This document shows positions 9,749-49,999 of a DNA stretch of 64,000 bases, piece by piece. The position numbers were made by a program, and so were the translations under genes. Below the pieces are notes generated by a model that saw only the letters and a list, made by a program, of their open reading frames with translations, ran no database searches and was not told the DNA's origin. How positions within the stretch are numbered: the first letter of the stretch is position 1; each line of letters opens with the position of its first letter. Source of the DNA: Candidatus Sulfotelmatobacter sp. (GTDB lineage Bacteria; Acidobacteriota; Terriglobia; Terriglobales; Acidobacteriaceae); assembly GCA_036500765.1 (NCBI GenBank), contig DASYBM010000002.1, positions 226,874-290,873 of the forward strand, in the 5' to 3' direction.

Positions 9749-11056
9749 ATGGCAATGGCGACCTCCAACGCTTCTACAAACACAACTACCGCACCGGGCA
9801 GCGGACAAAGTTACGGCGCTGCGCTGGCTGTGGTGACCACGCTCTTCTTCATGTGGGGATTTCTTACCTGCTTGAACGACATCTTAGTTCCTCATCTGAA
9901 GTCGATTTTCGACCTCACTTATGCGGAGGTCATGCTGATCCAGTTCGCTTTCTTCGGCTCATATTTCCTCTTCTCGATCCCATCGGCTAAGCTGATAGAT
10001 TGGATTGGATATCAGAAATCGATGGTGGTTGGCCTGCTCACCATGGGACTCGGCGCATTTCTGTTTGTACCGGCCGCGAGCGTTCCGTCGTTTCCTTTAT
10101 TCCTGGGCGCGCTCATCGTTCTCGCAGCAGGGATTACGTGCCTGCAAGTGGCCGCGAATCCTTACGTCACGGTTCTGGGAAAACCAGAGACGGCTTCGAG
10201 CCGACTAAATCTCACGCAGGCATTTAATTCGCTGGGCACATTTCTGGCGCCGTTTTTCGGCGGGATGCTGATTCTAAGTGCTGCGCCGAAAACTATGGAT
10301 CAAATCCGCGCGATGACGCCCGATGTCTTGCAGGCGTACCGTGTCCATGAGGCCGCGACGGTCAAAACGCCGTATGTCGGACTTGGAATTGCGCTGGTAT
10401 TGCTCGCTGTGGCGATCGGGAGTTTCAAACTGCCGACCATCGCGCATGCGCAGCACAAAGTCGGCGAGAAAGTGAACGACTCGATCTGGCGGCATCCGAA
10501 TTTAATTTTCGGCGCTCTCGCCATCTTCGTCTACGTTGGCGGCGAAGTCTCCATTGGGAGCTTTCTAGTGAACTATTTCGGCCAGCCGGAGATTGGCGGC
10601 CTGACGGAAAAGGTTGCGGCGAGCTACGTGGCTTTCTATTGGGGCGGCGCCATGGTTGGGCGTTTCATCGGCTCGGGGTTGTTGCAAAAGATGAGCACGC
10701 GACAACTCCTGGGAATCTGCGCGGTGTGCGCGGGCGCGCTGGTTGCCATCTCGATGCTTACGACCGGACCCACCGCGATGTATAGCATCATCCTGGTAGG
10801 GTTCTTCAACTCGATCATGTTCCCGAGCATCTTTACTCTGGGCGTGGCCGAATTGGGTCCGCTGACGGGGGACGGGTCGGGAGTCATGATTATGGCCATT
10901 GTTGGCGGGGCGATTCTTCCCGTAGCACAGGGCGCGATTGCCGATCGCATTGGCATACATCACGCATTCTTCCTTCCGGTATTGTGTTACCTGTACATCT
11001 TGTTCTTTGCCTTGAACGGATCGAAACCCAACAGCGAGCGTTATGCGAAGGCGTGA
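9749..11056 (+). CDS. MFS sugar:H+ symporter of the FucP/GluP (fucose or glucose/galactose) family
   Basis: Signature FFMWGFLTCLNDILVPHLK near the N-terminus, about 12 hydrophobic segments, 435 aa. Confidence 0.8.
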   Translation: MAMATSNASTNTTTAPGSGQSYGAALAVVTTLFFMWGFLTCLNDILVPHLKSIFDLTYAEVMLIQFAFFGSYFLFSIPSAKLIDWIGYQKSMVVGLLTMGLGAFLFVPAASVPSFPLFLGALIVLAAGITCLQVAANPYVTVLGKPETASSRLNLTQAFNSLGTFLAPFFGGMLILSAAPKTMDQIRAMTPDVLQAYRVHEAATVKTPYVGLGIALVLLAVAIGSFKLPTIAHAQHKVGEKVNDSIWRHPNLIFGALAIFVYVGGEVSIGSFLVNYFGQPEIGGLTEKVAASYVAFYWGGAMVGRFIGSGLLQKMSTRQLLGICAVCAGALVAISMLTTGPTAMYSIILVGFFNSIMFPSIFTLGVAELGPLTGDGSGVMIMAIVGGAILPVAQGAIADRIGIHHAFFLPVLCYLYILFFALNGSKPNSERYAKA

Positions 11057-13557: not shown

Positions 13558-14712
13558 CTAGGTGCGTACGAATCTGGCGGCGAGACGACTGAGTCGCACC
13601 AGGCGATATATCGGGAAAAGCGGTGGAGGTAAATGGACTGCCTGCCAGTCGCTGGGGCCAGAAGTAAAAGCCAGACGCTTCAGGAATCGTAGGCGATCGG
13701 CGGGGCGTTCGCGGAGACGCATCATCAACCGGAAGTACGCCACCGATTCCACGTTGTAGGAGGACTGGGTGGCAAGATGAGTTTGAATCTCGTCTGCCAG
13801 AGCCGGCGTTACCGGATCTTCGGGAAGACAGGTTTGCGCGGCAGAAGGCATGACCGCATTCAAAAGCCGATTCGCGAGCACCATCGTGACCCGAACGATA
13901 CGGACAATGCCCAAGGCTTGCGCCTGAGAGCCGATCCAATTCCAATCCAACGTTGGGAGCGCCATGATGCGGGCAATATCACAAAGCCAGATCAAACGTC
14001 CCCACACATGTTTGGCTGCGTGCGCCGATAGTAATAGGACCAAGTCTTCCGGCGCAGGAGTTGGCATCGGACGACCAGCAACCGGCACAGTAATAGCGCG
14101 CTGGAACAAGCAGTTCATTTCAAAATCGATGGCATAAAACCGCGGCTGCATCGCCCATTGCACCTCAAGAAGATTGGGACCGGCGGGGCCGTCGAAGGCG
14201 CATTCGTATCCTGACTTCAGGTAGGCACGCTCCTCAGCTGGAGAAAAATCCAGGTGCGGCATGTAACCGAGATCGCGGACCGCGTCCCGGATGTGAGGGA
14301 AGTCCTGGGGATGGATGAGCAGATCGATATCGCCGGACTGACGAAGCGCGATGTCGCCGTAGATTGTTTCAGCCAGCGCCAGCCCCTTGTAAGGCATCGC
14401 CTGAAGACCGAGCCCAGACAAGTGGTCAAGGATTCGAATCAACTCACAGGACAGCAATAACGTCTTGTGGAGATTGGTTTGGAACCGCTGCTTCAGCGAA
14501 GACAGTTCCTTGCGACGAACGTCTTCTACTTCGACAACAGCTTGATGAAGAAGTGGAAGAGTACCGTGGCGTTCGGCGAGATCGAAAAGAACTTCCCAGC
14601 GGATGGACTCGCGTGACAAAGACCGAATGTGGAAAATCTGTTCCTTGCGTGAAACTTCAGAACACGCCGCTAGGAGAAGGGACCACTCGGCTTCGAGTGT
14701 AGCGGAAGGCAT
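13558..14712 (-). CDS. Nucleotidyltransferase-fold protein (uncharacterised NTase family, PF14907-like)
   Basis: NTase-fold motif ...YGDIALRQSGDIDLLIHPQDF..., 384 aa. It is the last gene of the rSAM/PqqD/kinase operon, 30 nt downstream of the rSAM gene. Confidence 0.6.
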   Translation of the reverse strand: MPSATLEAEWSLLLAACSEVSRKEQIFHIRSLSRESIRWEVLFDLAERHGTLPLLHQAVVEVEDVRRKELSSLKQRFQTNLHKTLLLSCELIRILDHLSGLGLQAMPYKGLALAETIYGDIALRQSGDIDLLIHPQDFPHIRDAVRDLGYMPHLDFSPAEERAYLKSGYECAFDGPAGPNLLEVQWAMQPRFYAIDFEMNCLFQRAITVPVAGRPMPTPAPEDLVLLLSAHAAKHVWGRLIWLCDIARIMALPTLDWNWIGSQAQALGIVRIVRVTMVLANRLLNAVMPSAAQTCLPEDPVTPALADEIQTHLATQSSYNVESVAYFRLMMRLRERPADRLRFLKRLAFTSGPSDWQAVHLPPPLFPIYRLVRLSRLAARFVRT

Positions 14713-14742: not shown

Positions 14743-15903
14743 TCACCCGATCGTGCCGTGCGCCGAAGTGACAACGGCTGACGCAAGGGGACGAATCTGC
14801 ACCAGAGTCGCGTGTCCCATCGCCTTATCCATCCAATCCAGATTCACGCCAGCCGCTTGCTTGGCTAGCATATTGGCCGAGGGAATCCCGGTCCGAGCGT
14901 AGGACTTCTGACAATCCTGCGACGAAGGCCCCCGCATGTTGCCTTCCATGTAGGCGAGACCGGGGCAGCGTGTGCAGGTTGTGGCGTGACTACATGAGGA
15001 GCACGTCGGCAAATGCTTGGTGCGGATCGAGCGCACTTCATTCATTTGGTCGGAATAGCGCCAAATGTCGACGAAGCGCTGCTGGCGTACGTTCCCAGTC
15101 GGCAGCGGAAACTGCACGCACGGGAATACGTCGCCGTACGGTGAAACGTAACACGCCGTGTGGCCGGCACTGCACGGCACGGATTCGAGGTCGCTTTCGC
15201 CCGGCGGCGGGGGGATCGCGCAATATTCGTCAGTGTCGCCCACCAGGGCTGTATCGCGGAAAACCTGCCGCAACGCGGTCGTGTCAACGCCAAGATCGAG
15301 AGTGGAGCGGTTGCCGTCCATCATGGGCGTGACAGTGGGATCGAGAGTACATTCGACGCCAAGTTCAGCGGCGAGCGCGCGCACGCCGGAATAATCCTGC
15401 ATGTTCTGCGTCATCAGAACGTTGGCGATGATGACTTTTAATCCCTGCGATTTCAGAAAGCGGATGGCAGCAAGGGAACGCTTGAGCGAGCCAGGAATCA
15501 GCGTGATGGCGTCGTGAACTTCGGGGCGGTGCGAGTAAATGCTGACCTGAATCGATTCGACATGAAGATCGCGGAGGCGGGCGGCCTCATGCTCGCGGAT
15601 GAGGACAGCGTTGGTCTTGAGCTTCACGCAGAACATGAGACGGCGGGCGTGTTCGAGAAGCTCGAAGAAATCCTTGCGCAGAAAAATCTCGCCGCCGCTG
15701 AGCGTGAGAATGAACACCCCGGCGTCGGCCATTTGATCGAACAAGTGCTTGATTTCCGTTGTGGTCATCTCACCGTGATCGTCATGATCGAGATAACAGT
15801 GAACACAGCGCTCATTGCAGCGATAAGTGAGATCGACCTGGACGCTGAGGGGAATGTTGAGTTTCAGCGCTTTCTCGGACATTTCCTGTAGAAGCGCGCT
15901 CAT
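14743..15903 (-). CDS. Radical SAM enzyme with C-terminal SPASM-type auxiliary cluster domain (peptide-modifying type)
   Basis: CX3CX2C motif CNERCVHCY at residues 29-37. C-terminal Cys array CSAGHTACYVSPYGDVFPC...CSSCSHATTCTRCPG matches the SPASM pattern. The ATGA start/stop overlap with the PqqD-like gene indicates translational coupling. Confidence 0.9.
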   Translation of the reverse strand: MSALLQEMSEKALKLNIPLSVQVDLTYRCNERCVHCYLDHDDHGEMTTTEIKHLFDQMADAGVFILTLSGGEIFLRKDFFELLEHARRLMFCVKLKTNAVLIREHEAARLRDLHVESIQVSIYSHRPEVHDAITLIPGSLKRSLAAIRFLKSQGLKVIIANVLMTQNMQDYSGVRALAAELGVECTLDPTVTPMMDGNRSTLDLGVDTTALRQVFRDTALVGDTDEYCAIPPPPGESDLESVPCSAGHTACYVSPYGDVFPCVQFPLPTGNVRQQRFVDIWRYSDQMNEVRSIRTKHLPTCSSCSHATTCTRCPGLAYMEGNMRGPSSQDCQKSYARTGIPSANMLAKQAAGVNLDWMDKAMGHATLVQIRPLASAVVTSAHGTIG

Positions 15904-16232
15904 CGGGATTCTCCAAGGGCCGAGTTTGGCGTCCTGATCGGTCTGTCTACAATTGGGTGATCTGAGATTTGCAATATCTCATGCGTGGCTAGTTCCCGCG
16001 CCAGGGTTTCGGCGTCGTGCAATGCCTCAGAGGGCTCCACTTCGAACTCAGAGCAGATGCGGTGCTCAACGATTTCGTCGAGCGGAGTGCTGCCGTCGGC
16101 GGATTGCCACAGAATGGTCGCGGTCTTGTTCAGAGTAAAGAGCGTGGAATCACGGCCCGACATGATCATCATTTCGCCGTCGAGACTGCGGGCTGCGACT
16201 CGCGGATTGCGGGCAAGGTAAAGTCGGCTCAT
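15900..16232 (-). CDS. PqqD-family protein (RiPP recognition element / peptide chaperone)
   Basis: 110 aa. The pattern ...ARSLDGEMMIMSGRDSTLFTLNKTATILWQSADGSTPLDEIVEHRICSEFEVEPSEALHDAETLARELATHEIL is the typical PqqD winged-helix layout. It overlaps both neighbours by 4 nt. Confidence 0.75.
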   Translation of the reverse strand: MSRLYLARNPRVAARSLDGEMMIMSGRDSTLFTLNKTATILWQSADGSTPLDEIVEHRICSEFEVEPSEALHDAETLARELATHEILQISDHPIVDRPIRTPNSALGESR

Positions 16233-17098
16233 CCGATCAACTCCCAGACCCGGGCATCGGGTACAAAAGTGAGGCGCGACACCGGGACCCGGCTCACGAA
16301 CTCGAAGGCGGAATGAAATGTGGCTTGCACCAGTTCCTCATCCTGCGCGAAAAACAGAAGATTAGCAAGTAGCGATCGAGTCGCTTCCCCGGGCGCCAGG
16401 GGATCGATGCGATTCACCGGGCCTTTGGCGAGCAAGTAGAGGGCGGCGATCGGAGCCGAAACATTTTCGCCGAGCTTGGCTAGTTCGCCGGTAAACGGCG
16501 TACCGTACGCCATGTAGCCGCCATCGTGCTTGCGCACGCCTTCCCTGCGCAGATCTTCCTTTCGGGCGCTTTCTTTTCGAACGTAGGAAATTTCGTCGGT
16601 CAACAATGTTGCGTCGGGCGGGGCCAGCCGGGAGATCGTGGTTTTACCGGCCTCCGAAACGCCGGCGAATAAGAAAGCCCTGCCATTGCGTATGGCGCTG
16701 GCGGAGTGCAGAAGGAATCCGCCCTGACGGGCAAGCACGAGCGTGTGGACAATGCGCAGCACGGCGTCGATCGAATAAGGATTGGCCGACTGGCGAATCC
16801 ACCCACGACGCGAAGCGGGCTCCCACTCGGCGCGAAAATCTCCTCGCTCCATGGTCCAGCGGCCCTCATGTTGAGTAACGCTTACTACGGCATAAGGATC
16901 GGCGAAGGTGGCGGGTCTGAGGTCAACATCGAATTCAATTTCCACGGGTCTGTCCGCCCGCTCCGAGACCACGAATCCGGCATAGCGGTCTTGCAGCATC
17001 GCCAGAAAGCCCGCATCTGTGGCCAGGACGCGGACGGGCATGCCTCCGATTTCAATCACGAGGCTGAGGCGGTCGACTTCAGTGGTTAGCTCGGGCAA
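16229..17098 (-). CDS. HPr-kinase-C-terminal-like P-loop protein (HprK-related kinase)
   Basis: Walker-A-like FAGVSEAGKTT in a 289-aa protein with no other recognisable domain. The call also rests on gene context next to PqqD and the NTase. Confidence 0.55.
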   Translation of the reverse strand: MPELTTEVDRLSLVIEIGGMPVRVLATDAGFLAMLQDRYAGFVVSERADRPVEIEFDVDLRPATFADPYAVVSVTQHEGRWTMERGDFRAEWEPASRRGWIRQSANPYSIDAVLRIVHTLVLARQGGFLLHSASAIRNGRAFLFAGVSEAGKTTISRLAPPDATLLTDEISYVRKESARKEDLRREGVRKHDGGYMAYGTPFTGELAKLGENVSAPIAALYLLAKGPVNRIDPLAPGEATRSLLANLLFFAQDEELVQATFHSAFEFVSRVPVSRLTFVPDARVWELIG

Positions 17099-17601
17099 AC
17101 GACGTCTCGATCCTGATTGCGGCTCGGAGTCTGGCGCATGCCATGAATGCCTGCGACTACACGGGCAGCGAACTTAGAACGCTGAATCATGGCCGCTACT
17201 GCGTGCTCGAAGAAGCTCTGATTCTGGCGCGGGCGAATGAATTTGCCGTTACGCTCGATCAGGGAAACTCTCCCCATGACTTCGCCTTCCGGCACTGGCG
17301 GATCCGCGGCAGCCATCGCATCCCCGCGGGTCACGATTTCGAAAGCTGGTCGGTGGCCTGGGGCGACCGTGCGACGCACAACTCTATGTACTACGAGTCG
17401 CCGGTCGCGGCCGTACAAGACGATGTCGCCTTCTGAAATGCAACCGGTGGAGATGCGCTCGATCGTGAGCATGTCTCCAGGCATGATGGCTGGCAGCATG
17501 CTCCATCCTGTAACACACAGACGCAAAGTACCGGACGAGCGCAAGACTTCACTCGCCAGTTCGCACTTCAACGCGTGCACGGCATTGGCGGCGGGACTCA
17601 C
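17086..17601 (-). CDS. S24/S26-family serine peptidase (signal-peptidase-I/LexA-like fold), candidate leader peptidase; start reassigned
   Basis: Motif RLCVTGWSMLPAIMPGDML (nucleophile-Ser region), then GDIVLY and RGDAM. The track start at 17664 would overlap the 56-aa small ORF. An in-frame GTG at 17601 lies 8 nt after that ORF's stop and leaves about 33 aa before the catalytic Ser region. Confidence 0.6.
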   Translation of the reverse strand: MSPAANAVHALKCELASEVLRSSGTLRLCVTGWSMLPAIMPGDMLTIERISTGCISEGDIVLYGRDRRLVVHRVVRRTVAPGHRPAFEIVTRGDAMAAADPPVPEGEVMGRVSLIERNGKFIRPRQNQSFFEHAVAAMIQRSKFAARVVAGIHGMRQTPSRNQDRDVVCPS

Positions 17602-17609
17602 ACGTGGTT

Positions 17610-17780
17610 CTAGGAAACCTTGGAACTCGTACAGCCCCCTTGGGTCGCGCTTATCTTGCCGCACGAAAGCGCGCTGGTTACAAACACCTGTTCGAAGCGA
17701 AAAGCGGGCTTTTCGTACGGTTTCTTGTTGGTCTCCGAGGTGCGCGGAGCGTCATCGGAAGAAAAGTTGTTCATCGCCAT
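17610..17780 (-). CDS. Candidate RiPP precursor peptide (56 aa), not in the ORF track
   Basis: Hand translation of the minus strand gives MAMNNFSSDDAPRTSETNKKPYEKPAFRFEQVFVTSALSCGKISATQGGCTSSKVS*. ATG at 17780-17778, with AAGG 8-11 nt upstream; TAG at 17612-17610. It sits immediately upstream of the peptidase/kinase/PqqD/rSAM genes on the same strand. The N-terminal half is hydrophilic and leader-like, with a YEKPAF motif. The C-terminal half is rich in Cys, Ser, Thr and Gly. Confidence 0.5.
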   Translation of the reverse strand: MAMNNFSSDDAPRTSETNKKPYEKPAFRFEQVFVTSALSCGKISATQGGCTSSKVS

Positions 17781-17804: not shown

Positions 17805-19958
17805 TCACTGAGGCTCCTGCATCGCGCAGGCGCCCGTGCCGGATGTTCCACAAACCTGACTGCCCAGAGTAAAAAAGTATACCTGAGAAGCGCCCGTTAA
17901 AGTGCCGCTGTTCACAGCGTTGTCGATAATAATCCCGCCCGTGCCGGAGGCTGCGGGAATGGCCGCGTTGGGCCAAGGGCCGGCATTGGTCCAAATCGCC
18001 GTGCCATCTGTAGTCGTGCCGCCAACGTTTGTGTTCCATGTGGGAACAGCGCCGCCAGACCTCCCGCTCAAAGGCAATACCTCAACGTTGTTGTTGCTGT
18101 CAATAATACGGGAGACGTTGCCGTAGATATGGTTGGCGGTCCATCCCGTCAATGTGTTAACCGTTGTCGCTCCCTGGTTCACCCAAGTGACGCCGCCGTC
18201 CACCGTCTGGTTACTGGGATTGGTAGGCCACACGGGTTCGGATGTGCTCGTTGTACCGGCCGTAATAGCCGTATTGAGGTACAACGTGTTGTTCGCGGTT
18301 CGGAGAACTAATATCTGCTGACCCACGTTAAAGTGAGTGGAAGCGCGCCACGGCATGCTGATGAAATTCATCATGCAGCCCCTGTTGGCGCACGGCGTCG
18401 GCCGGGCGCTGTTGGCAACGCTAAAGAAAATCCGTTCGGTCGTGCCTACGCTGGTATTCGGGTTCGAAAAGTCTGTTACGGGAGAACAGGCGGGCTTTTG
18501 CGCGGCGGGAGTCAGTGGCGCTATCGCAGCGGCTGCGCCGAAAACGCCGCTGTTAATCGGCACCCGGTACAAATTAGGGTCTCCTCCCGTGTTGCCGCAA
18601 ACGTAGAGGTTTCCCGTGGCCCCCGCAGATCCATAATAGGTACTGTCAAAGCCGCCAATGTATAGCGGGTTCGGAGTATTGCCGCTCGCGACGCTGGTCC
18701 CGACGAGCACATTGGATCCCTTGGAACCGGACGCGAATGTCGTGGAAAGTTGGAAGACAGCGCTACAGGCGACGCCGCCGCAGCTCGTGCTGCCATCGCT
18801 CGAAGAGAACACATAGATCAAGCTGTTGGTGACATCGAGGATTGGACTCTCCACCAGACCGGTGCCGAAATCCAATTTTCCGGACGCGGTGGCCGTGGTG
18901 CCGGTCGCCGAAGGCACTCGATAAAAGAACCCGCCCGCATCGCCCACAAATACGTTCCTGGATATGTGGTCATAGACGGGATTGGAAAGTGCGCTGGGAT
19001 TGGTCGTATTAACCTGAACTGGGAAACCGCCCGCGCTGACTTCGCCCGGAGGGTTTAGGGCGGTGCCCTTGAATACTCCGGTAATTTTATGAAGCCAGCC
19101 GATAGCGCCACCAGTCCAGGCTATGTCATTCGTGTAATCGTAATATGCCGATGAAGTTCTGTCGTCGACAGCGACCCCGTGCCCGTCGTGCAGGAAAACC
19201 TCGGTCATGCAAGGGGCGACACAAGTCGGATAGAGCGCATTGGATACGGATGTCGGTACACCCGGCGCGCCAACGGTTTCGGTAGCTGATGCCTTCCATT
19301 TCAGAATCACCAGTCCGGCTAGGCCCGTAGGGCTGCCCGAAGTCTGTACGAACGCGACCTGTGTGCCATCCAGAGACAGCACTGGAGAGGTGAGAATGAG
19401 ACCGCCAGTGTTGTAGGCCCAATAGACCGAAGGCACAGTGCCTCCGCATCCGGAGTAGAGATTGTCGAATGCGACCACGCTGGCTTGCGTTCCAGATCCA
19501 ATTACCCCAGTAGTGTAGACGACATAATCCGGGGTGGCGGCGGCGCCGCAGTTCGCGATACTGGTGTTAAACGAAAATTTGGCGGGATAGTTAGTCGCAC
19601 CCGGCGCGGCCGCACCGCCGAGCGTCTGCGGCCAGACGTTGCTGGGAGTATTCCCCGGGTTCAAATCGGCCGCTTCCGGCTTCAGCACCTGAGACTGTCC
19701 GCGGCGATACAGCTGTTGCCAATAACGCGGATCGTCGTTGAGCAGGCGAGCTTGTTCCTCCGATGCGGGCGCAGTGAAGATAACGTGACTGTGACTCCAG
19801 TCGGTAGGCAGAGGGATTCCGCGGCCAGCGGGCTTAGCCGCCTGGCCGGTTAACACCCATCCCAAGACCGCCAATCCAGACAAGCTCACACCCAGCCGGA
19901 GAAATCGTGCGGAGGTACCGTTCATTTGTGCAGACTCCATGGGTCTCGCGAGATGCAA
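17805..19958 (-). CDS. Large secreted hypothetical protein (Gly/Ser/Thr/Asn-rich, possibly beta-propeller-like) with two C-terminal W...DG..W repeat modules
   Basis: N-terminal signal/anchor FLRLGVSLSGLAVLGWVLTGQAA. 717 aa. Two tandem C-terminal modules: TAGTTSTSEPVWPTNPSNQTVDGGVTWVNQG and SGRSGGAVPTWNTNVGGTTTDGTAIWTNAG. Its stop is 24 nt upstream of the small ORF start. Confidence 0.6.
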   Translation of the reverse strand: MHLARPMESAQMNGTSARFLRLGVSLSGLAVLGWVLTGQAAKPAGRGIPLPTDWSHSHVIFTAPASEEQARLLNDDPRYWQQLYRRGQSQVLKPEAADLNPGNTPSNVWPQTLGGAAAPGATNYPAKFSFNTSIANCGAAATPDYVVYTTGVIGSGTQASVVAFDNLYSGCGGTVPSVYWAYNTGGLILTSPVLSLDGTQVAFVQTSGSPTGLAGLVILKWKASATETVGAPGVPTSVSNALYPTCVAPCMTEVFLHDGHGVAVDDRTSSAYYDYTNDIAWTGGAIGWLHKITGVFKGTALNPPGEVSAGGFPVQVNTTNPSALSNPVYDHISRNVFVGDAGGFFYRVPSATGTTATASGKLDFGTGLVESPILDVTNSLIYVFSSSDGSTSCGGVACSAVFQLSTTFASGSKGSNVLVGTSVASGNTPNPLYIGGFDSTYYGSAGATGNLYVCGNTGGDPNLYRVPINSGVFGAAAAIAPLTPAAQKPACSPVTDFSNPNTSVGTTERIFFSVANSARPTPCANRGCMMNFISMPWRASTHFNVGQQILVLRTANNTLYLNTAITAGTTSTSEPVWPTNPSNQTVDGGVTWVNQGATTVNTLTGWTANHIYGNVSRIIDSNNNVEVLPLSGRSGGAVPTWNTNVGGTTTDGTAIWTNAGPWPNAAIPAASGTGGIIIDNAVNSGTLTGASQVYFFTLGSQVCGTSGTGACAMQEPQ

Positions 19959-49708: not shown

Positions 49709-49884
49709 AAGTCAGAAGATGTTGAAGAAATGCCCCAAAAACTGCCCCACACGACGTGTTCCACCTACAGATTACCCAGGCCTGGTGAAGGACGCAAAAA
49801 ATCGTCGCCGCCGATTTCAAGTCTTTCCTGGCGTGCTTTGCGTTTTAAAGCTTTTGACTTGGTCGCCGGCGAAGACAAAATCCT

Positions 49885-49967
49885 AGATCGCAAAGAAATG
49901 CCGCAAAGAACGCAAAGATCTAACGCAAAGATCTATGAATATAAAAGATCTATGAATATAGAAGATC
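49885..49967. repeat. Short tandem/direct repeat cluster with five (A)GATC cores upstream of the RND operon
   Basis: CGCAAAGA occurs four times (49889, 49902, 49911, 49924). The 16-nt unit aaagatctatgaatat occurs twice with 17-nt period (49927-49942, 49944-49959). AGATC cores are at 49885, 49916, 49929, 49946 and 49963. Confidence 0.7.
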
Positions 49968-49999
49968 GACGGTCTCGCCGTTTGAGACACCTCCCAAAC

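Follow-up and report, generated by a model that had tools for sequence, protein, structure and literature searches.

The DNA analysed here (the window) is a stretch of 64,000 nucleotides (nt) from Candidatus Sulfotelmatobacter sp., a member of the Acidobacteriota (contig DASYBM010000002.1), and positions are those of the whole window. It contained seven consecutive open reading frames (ORFs), all on the minus strand and separated by small gaps or overlaps in the window ORF list (Table 1). We consider it probable, at about 70%, that these genes form one operon for a ribosomally made and modified peptide, related to the linear polyphosphorylated peptide (LPP) pathway of Bacillota and with an added radical SAM (rSAM) step. 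The operon corresponded to the LPP core set, namely a kinase, a peptidase resembling signal peptidase I (SpI), a recognition element (RRE) for RiPPs (peptides made by ribosomes and modified after their translation) and a nucleotidyltransferase-fold protein (NTase), minus the exporter and plus an rSAM/SPASM enzyme. The catalytic motifs of all four enzymes were intact as read from the sequence. An initial annotation of the window had described an operon of RiPP type that combines genes for a kinase, an NTase and an RRE with an rSAM/SPASM gene and lacks a lasso cyclase and B2 protease, and this description held in every detail. Its further proposal, that the tailoring genes came from a paeninodin-type lasso cluster, was not supported.

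The LPP clusters of Bacillota encode the precursor LppA, the HprK-like kinase LppK, the RRE LppB, LppS, the exporter LppD and the NTP transferase LppN (Popov et al. 2026, Nat Commun, PMC13381572). In the core, Ser3 is the residue that LppK polyphosphorylates, and LppS cuts after T-1 of an F-E-T motif; Thr was rejected by LppK, and unphosphorylated LppA was poorly cleaved (PMC13381572). As a reference for the comparisons we used the locus of Paenibacillus alginolyticus DSM 5050, where we identified the lpp genes together with the lasso (pba) genes next to them.

Conservation and layout of the operon

Gene content was compared by tblastn in 80 loci from species-level genomes carrying the kinase, nearly all of them Acidobacteriota. 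The kinase, PqqD and rSAM genes were present in all 80 loci, the peptidase in 77 and the precursor in 75 (E 1e-5). Matches to the lasso cyclase and B2 protease (PbaC, PbaB2) occurred in none of the 80, and matches to an ATP-binding cassette (ABC) exporter, LppD or PbaD, in 6–7 only. The gene for the 717-aa protein was present in 59 loci, upstream, and this protein is likely associated with the operon. Its AlphaFold2 (AF2) model comprised a helix at residues 16–40 and a propeller core, and the fold and profile searches returned generic beta-propellers only.

The kinase family extends well beyond these loci. Within the phylum, a homologue at E<=1e-10 was present in 82 of 401 sampled genomes, about a dozen of them with close orthologues. 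In a protein database, the matches amounted to more than 6,700 clusters at 90% identity; among the 50%-identity representatives, 5,574 clusters matched at E<=1e-3, and the best 150 matches were all orthologues with 35–80% identity. We also inspected 20 further loci, 19 with distant kinase paralogues (about 26–34% BLAST identity) and one, L181, with a nearer homologue (45%). An rSAM/SPASM gene was located near the kinase paralogue in 14 of the 20, a PqqD gene and an SpI-like peptidase accompanied it in many, and a lasso cyclase or B2 protease in none. Because the rSAM/SPASM gene was so often nearby even with these paralogues, the pairing of a ScmC-type kinase with an rSAM/SPASM enzyme appears to be old, recurrent and habitual, rather than the result of a single swap into a lasso cluster.

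Some clusters departed from the common pattern. In L020, L026, L069 and L076 the precursor and propeller genes were missing, in two of the four the peptidase gene as well, and a glucan phosphorylase gene abutted the remaining kinase-PqqD-rSAM-NTase genes; these clusters are possibly decaying or supplied in trans. Two loci bore labels from other phyla. L041, a contig of a metagenome-assembled genome labelled Verrucomicrobiia, showed the operon with the acidobacterial LacI and major facilitator superfamily (MFS) synteny and a kinase identity of 66–74%, and L064, labelled Deferrimicrobiaceae, showed it without the LacI/MFS flanking genes. For both, mis-binning seems more likely than transfer.

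The layout in the window was compact. The kinase stop and the PqqD start overlapped in an ATGA, so the translational coupling stated in the initial annotation was found as described, and the PqqD stop and the rSAM start overlapped likewise. The TTG start of the kinase at 17098 lay within the end of the peptidase gene, with an overlap of 13 nt, and the N-terminus predicted from it, MPELTTE, was kept in relatives. As listed, the peptidase ORF (192 aa, to 17664) and the precursor gene overlapped by 55 nt. In the same frame, a GTG was present at 17601, 8 nt past the precursor stop; the homologue in locus L006 measured 159 aa and started 4 nt past its own precursor. Because of the overlap of the longer ORF and the size of this homologue, GTG 17601 is the more likely start. 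The PF14907 gene closed the operon, as had been noted, and was followed by a convergent MFS gene. A scan for promoters and terminators returned sites no more numerous than chance.

Table 1. Genes of the operon, from the upstream to the downstream end.
Feature	Position	Strand	Remarks
717-aa protein	17805..19958	(-)	N-terminal membrane helix and beta-propeller; 24 nt upstream of precursor
56-aa precursor peptide	17610..17780	(-)	tblastn relatives; ends SSKVS
Leader peptidase, archaeal/ER signal-peptidase-I type	17086..17601, revised start (17086-17664 as listed)	(-)	TIGR02228, PF00717, LppS homology
LppK/ScmC-type P-loop peptide kinase (predicted), PEPCK/HprK superfamily	16229..17098	(-)	289 aa, TTG start
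Discrete PqqD-family RRE	15900..16232	(-)	PF05402 4e-11
Radical SAM/SPASM peptide maturase (predicted)	14743..15903	(-)	PF04055 3e-21, PF13186 4e-11
PF14907 nucleotidyltransferase-fold protein (NTase)	13558..14712	(-)	PF14907 (NTP_transf_5) 7.7e-52; last gene

Lineage of the kinase and of its partners

The kinase matched LppK over its full length (BLASTP 5e-23, 24% identity, residues 16–289 against 7–261), and PbaK over only 59 residues around the P-loop (0.007). At the family level, hhalign gave a probability of 99.9% for LppK (E 2e-32, 256 columns) and of 97.1% for PbaK (E 6e-11), the latter over 135 columns restricted to the P-loop/catalytic domain. A tree including lasso-associated homologues had been suggested in the initial annotation; in the maximum-likelihood tree of 25 acidobacterial, 22 LppK and 40 PbaK sequences, the acidobacterial kinases and LppK were split from PbaK with a support of 100/100. 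The best NCBIfam matches of LppK and LppB were ScmC and ScmD, respectively, and that of PbaK was true HPr(Ser) kinase; PbaK also matched PF07475 at 2.5e-8. From these sequence comparisons, the kinase is assigned to the LppK/ScmC lineage and not to the paeninodin/lasso (PadeK/PbaK) lineage.

The initial annotation had called the protein an HprK-like kinase with a GVSEAGKTT P-loop. The motif was located at residues 146–154, and G146, S148, A150, G151, K152, T153, T154, H131 and D168-E169 (LTDE) were invariant in 25 kinase homologues. The term HprK-like applied at the level of the superfamily and no further. The kinase had no match in the local Pfam copy, PF07475 included, and its only NCBIfam match was ScmC, with 24.1 bits for a cut-off of 125; a PF27840 'ScmC' label, precomputed in a large protein database, was attached to the kinase and to all 120 homologues listed. 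The AF2 model of the kinase (pLDDT 84, pTM 0.82) matched ATP-dependent phosphoenolpyruvate carboxykinases (PEPCK) best, at E 3e-10 and with both domains covered, and the catalytic domains of HprK/P at about 1e-3. Since the model fits ATP-PEPCK best and HprK/P more weakly, the protein is classified on its predicted fold as a P-loop kinase of the PEPCK/HprK superfamily. An insertion was observed at window positions 16520–16580, where kinase residues about 176–190 form a charged segment of about 15 residues, SARKEDLRREGVRKH, lacking in 22 of 24 aligned homologues. At this site, which is probably a surface loop, the kinases of L077 and L078 carried low-complexity insertions of far greater length.

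The P-loop and the PEPCK/HprK fold would also suit a kinase unrelated to RiPPs, such as a true HPr kinase/phosphorylase, that merely adjoins RiPP genes. We give this explanation next to no credence. The source genome, 99.3% complete, contained no HPr (PF00381) and no match to canonical HprK (PF07475), and the kinase gene, coupled in translation to the PqqD gene, was linked to PqqD and rSAM genes in every one of the 80 loci. On the absence of HPr and this invariant linkage, a bona fide HprK was rejected.

The peptidase matched LppS (BLASTP 8e-11), PF00717 (2e-6) and TIGR02228 (2e-11, 44 bits, below the cut-off of 51.85); its nearest solved chains were SEC11A/C, and inspection of the sequence showed the motif Ser in GWSMLP and His in VVHRVV. 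With a leader peptidase encoded in the operon itself, the idea that the rSAM enzyme stands in place of a protease was not supported. The NTase, with an intact GDIDLL (DxD) motif, was closer to the lasso-linked PbaN (2e-22) than to LppN (4e-12). For the RRE, the nearest solved chains were the lasso B1 proteins TfuB1 (6e-5) and TbiB1 (1e-3). The Paenibacillus reference locus had been reached through a further PDB chain, 9x90_B, whose deposited name is 'Lasso peptide biosynthesis PqqD family chaperone'. In the 64 residues compared, this chain showed 100% identity to the RRE encoded at 9932–10237 of that locus; because that RRE adjoins the B2 protease, the chain is PbaB1 and not LppB.

The rSAM protein displayed the CNERCVHC motif (CX3CX2C) and a Cys-rich SPASM domain, both read from the sequence. 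With its partner RRE and partner peptide, it has the features of a putative rSAM/SPASM RiPP maturase. It scored below the cut-off of every NCBIfam equivalog (ScmE 101 for 400, ScmF 59 for 400). Its best solved relative was SkfB (1e-16), and the longest single-stretch NCBIfam alignment was obtained with MftC, an rSAM enzyme that acts on a C-terminal residue.

The initial annotation inferred that the tailoring genes of a paeninodin-type lasso cluster (for a PadeK-like kinase, an NTase and a B1-like RRE) had seemingly been recombined with the gene of an rSAM/SPASM enzyme, which took the place of the cyclase and the protease. The same functional trio is indeed found in the paeninodin and pseudomycoidin clusters (PadeK, PsmK, PsmN): a Ser kinase that uses ATP and belongs to the same superfamily, an NTase of the PF14907 type and a B1-like RRE, together with a precursor which, like PadeA and PsmA, ends in Ser. 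The solved relatives of the RRE and the greater proximity of the NTase to PbaN also speak for a lasso origin. Unlike those clusters, the operon has no cyclase and no B2 protease, its leader peptidase belongs to another class, and the core predicted in the window is devoid of the Asp or Glu acceptor needed for a macrolactam. Its kinase, grouped with LppK apart from the 40 lasso-linked PbaK homologues, shares only the catalytic domain with PbaK and does not have the PF07475 match of the latter. The pairing with rSAM also recurs in the 14 of 20 loci with divergent paralogues. We regard the lasso-module origin as distinctly improbable. The recurrence of ScmC-type kinase, PqqD and rSAM/SPASM genes in divergent clusters, together with the names of the NCBIfam SCM models, implies that a single recombination replacing a lasso core is not indicated and that no direction of exchange is to be read from these data.

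The operon is not a lasso system. A search of the whole genome for lasso cyclases, also suggested in the initial annotation, returned three genes resembling Asn synthase (AsnB-like, open frames of 639–667 aa) on other contigs, C4 and C16, and no PF13471 (lasso B2 protease) was found anywhere in the genome. A lasso peptide with a cyclase encoded elsewhere was rejected on the absence of B2, the absence of an acidic core residue and the location of the AsnB-like genes on other contigs.

The precursor peptide and the candidate phosphorylation site

The precursor leader carries KKPYEKPAFRFEQVFVT and the predicted core is SALSCGKISATQGGCTSSKVS. Orthologous precursors were found by tblastn in 76 loci at E 1e-3 (75 of them distinct). 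Their consensus was KKPYEKPxFRxExVF[V/E]T-x-A-L-[S/T/A/F]-C-G-K-x(6-8)-C-x(5-7)-S(end). The C-x-K motif and the second Cys were invariant in the 76 precursors, and the terminal Ser, which the initial annotation had pointed out in the SSKVS ending, was kept in 76 of 76, with the two positions before it varying. No other Ser was invariant, and Ser made up 12% of precursor residues. Core position +1, after F-x-T, was occupied by Thr in 47, Ser in 16 and another residue in 13 (T/S/M/R/L/Q/N were seen), position T+3 by L, M or I, and position +4, before the first Cys, by Ser in 58, Thr in 12, Ala in 5 and Phe in one. The terminal Ser was also present in the distant clusters: all 12 complete candidate precursors, from 9 loci with kinases of 26–45% BLAST identity to that of the window, ended in Ser, with a [K/R][K/R]xYxxP leader and at least two Cys. 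In four of the six distant-paralogue loci without a nearby rSAM gene, a search for precursors revealed no credible small ORFs above the noise of high-GC ORFs. Judged from this conservation, the terminal Ser is a strongly selected feature. Two divergent acidobacterial clusters possessed two tandem precursor genes each (L175, 11583–12070, and L178, 11772–12210; MKKTYEKPAI...C.K...C......TS), each ending in Ser.

The source genome contained one kinase, one peptidase and one rSAM of the operon's kind, and three precursor genes. The two orphan precursors were located on C1 (about 49875–49991, minus strand, ending in KKPYLKPAFRYEPVFVTSALTCGKLAGTSAHCNIIRKVS) and on C16 (about 443400–443543, plus strand, ending in KKPYVKPEFRFEKVFETSALTCGKTVTEGQCHSARKVS). 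Both ended in RKVS, had the same leader and C-G-K motif, and had no maturation genes nearby. A paralogue of the 717-aa propeller protein adjoined each of them, which makes three precursor-propeller pairs for one maturation operon. On C13 (50302–52719), a second PqqD gene (52 bits) was located about 1.3 kb upstream of an rSAM/SPASM-like gene whose product was 24% identical to the operon rSAM; from sequence, these two genes are taken to be a separate peptide- or cofactor-maturation system.

We propose the following pathway, in which each chemical step is inferred from gene content, homologies, conservation and the intact catalytic motifs. The PqqD protein would bind the YxxP leader of the 56-aa precursor. 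The rSAM/SPASM enzyme would then modify the Cys-containing core, probably by a cross-link involving the invariant C-x-K and the second Cys; these invariant residues suggest a Cys-based cross-link. The LppK/ScmC-type kinase would phosphorylate a Ser with ATP, the likeliest site being the invariant C-terminal Ser. The PF14907 protein, where present, may add a further group to the phosphate, as PsmN does. Finally, cleavage by the SpI-like peptidase after F-[V/E]-T would take off the leader, in the manner of LppS, which cuts after F-E-T. Homology supports three of these putative roles, namely Ser phosphorylation (LppK, and PsmK at the superfamily level), RRE-assisted cleavage (LppS) and decoration of the phosphate (PsmN, which is required for hexose addition to phospho-Ser in pseudomycoidin; PMC6993621).

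For the site of phosphorylation, the terminal Ser is favoured since it is the sole invariant Ser and since the terminal Ser, with which PadeA and PsmA both end, is the phospho-acceptor in paeninodin and pseudomycoidin (PMC6993621). We rate this assignment at about even odds, because LppK uses Ser3 and because a terminal Ser was seen only together with an rSAM. It is possible instead that, in the same pathway, the kinase modifies a residue close to the junction of leader and core, like the Ser3 target of LppK, and so licenses cleavage, and that the terminal Ser serves the rSAM enzyme (e.g., as a cross-link partner or in C-terminal processing) or export. The poor cleavage of unphosphorylated LppA agrees with this, as do the frequent Ser or Thr at core +1 (63 of 76) and +4 (70 of 76), the finding of a terminal Ser solely in clusters with an rSAM, the LPP clusters having neither, and the long alignment of the operon rSAM with MftC. 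Against it, at least 10 precursors have no Ser at +1 or +4 (e.g., FETRALTCGK and FVTTALACGK) and Thr is not accepted by LppK. Moreover, the terminal Ser is the acceptor in both studied lasso systems, whose clusters include a kinase and, in pseudomycoidin, an NTase of the same family. We consider a junction site unlikely.

A phospho-Ser could also be eliminated to dehydroalanine, to which a core Cys would add to form a lanthionine-like ring, the rSAM making a separate modification. With two invariant Cys and one invariant Ser, the core of about 21 residues would allow it, and class II–IV lanthipeptides are established to form in this way, through phosphorylation and then elimination. The Pfam and NCBIfam scans of the operon detected no lyase or cyclase homologue, and the nearest studied kinases, LppK and PsmK, leave stable and even multiple phosphates, which makes this chemistry very unlikely.

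In a more far-reaching reading, the mature product would be a Cys-cross-linked peptide of about 21 residues whose C-terminal Ser is phosphorylated, a glycosyl group perhaps being attached to that phosphate. The rSAM and the kinase would both converge on the terminal Ser, and the product would be not a free antibiotic but a ligand or small subunit of the membrane-anchored beta-propeller protein. This full combination is speculative and, taken as a whole, unlikely.

Several observations weigh against an LPP-related operon whose kinase targets the terminal Ser. The nearest studied kinase, LppK, has only 24% identity and targets core Ser3, not the terminal Ser. None of 20 LppA homologues ended in Ser, and their clusters contain the kinase without an rSAM; the terminal Ser consequently tracks the rSAM as much as the kinase in every cluster examined. 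The RRE had no BLASTP match to LppB (or to PbaB1). The NTase gene, adjacent in 56 of the 80 loci, was absent beside the other 24 clusters, and LppN was inactive in the published heterologous host (PMC13381572). No exporter was evident in the operon, the Pfam and NCBIfam scans finding no ABC gene among its ORFs.

Relation to known systems and significance

The closest studied relative of the operon appears, from the sequence comparisons, to be the LPP pathway and not the lasso peptides. Their kinases share lineage and architecture, both include a leader peptidase of SpI type, a stand-alone PqqD RRE and an NTase of the PF14907 family, and in both the precursor has a YxxP leader and an F-x-T before the core; the YEKPAFRFEQVFVT of the operon parallels the YARPMVLSQQPVRFET of LppA and is two residues shorter. 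There are also differences. The acidobacterial operon has an rSAM/SPASM enzyme, in 80 of 80 loci, which implies that its product is probably not linear, and it is without an MsbA-type exporter. The LPP motif YxxPxVLxHQxIxFETxxS with its acceptor Ser3 was not recovered: FET..S was present in 19 of 20 LppA homologues and in none of the 76 acidobacterial precursors, in which a Ser at core position 3 is unconserved and the terminal Ser and two Cys are invariant. The gene order is A-S-K-B-rSAM-N here, as opposed to A-K-B-S-D-N, the RRE is not detectably close to LppB, and the hosts are Acidobacteriota, whereas LPPs were called restricted to Bacillota (PMC13381572). The operon departs from the LPPs on three defining points: the exporter, the Ser3 motif and the linear product.

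Two other groups were compared. The SCM (SynChlorMet) cassette, reportedly first described by Haft and Basu in 2011 and considered here through the NCBIfam models ScmC, ScmD, ScmE and ScmF, is similarly built from a P-loop protein of the ScmC type, a protein resembling PqqD and rSAM/SPASM enzymes. The operon differs by one rSAM instead of two, by scores far below the cut-offs given above for ScmC, ScmE and ScmF, and by the absence of a ScmD match; it is not an SCM cassette at the equivalog level. Like the sactipeptide and ranthipeptide maturases (SkfB, AlbA, CteB-type), the operon associates an rSAM/SPASM enzyme and an RRE with a Cys-containing core. Unlike them, its RRE is a separate protein, and a kinase, an NTase and an SpI-like peptidase belong to the cluster.

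Within the literature searched, the acidobacterial rSAM-containing family was undescribed, and, the LPP paper apart, nothing of this architecture was found. In its 2026 description, the LPP pathway was said to give linear products and to be restricted to Bacillota; the same core of kinase, RRE and SpI-like peptidase is now seen in Acidobacteriota, always with a radical SAM enzyme and with a strict substrate signature made of the YxxP leader, the C-x-K, the second Cys and the terminal Ser. The locus connects three groups that have been treated separately, i.e., the LPPs, the phosphorylated lasso peptides and the SCM-type rSAM cassettes. The system offers a tractable test of whether kinases of the ScmC/LppK type can target a terminal Ser. 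It also defines a large uncharacterised RiPP family, widespread in soil Acidobacteriota, in a phylum poor in studied natural products.

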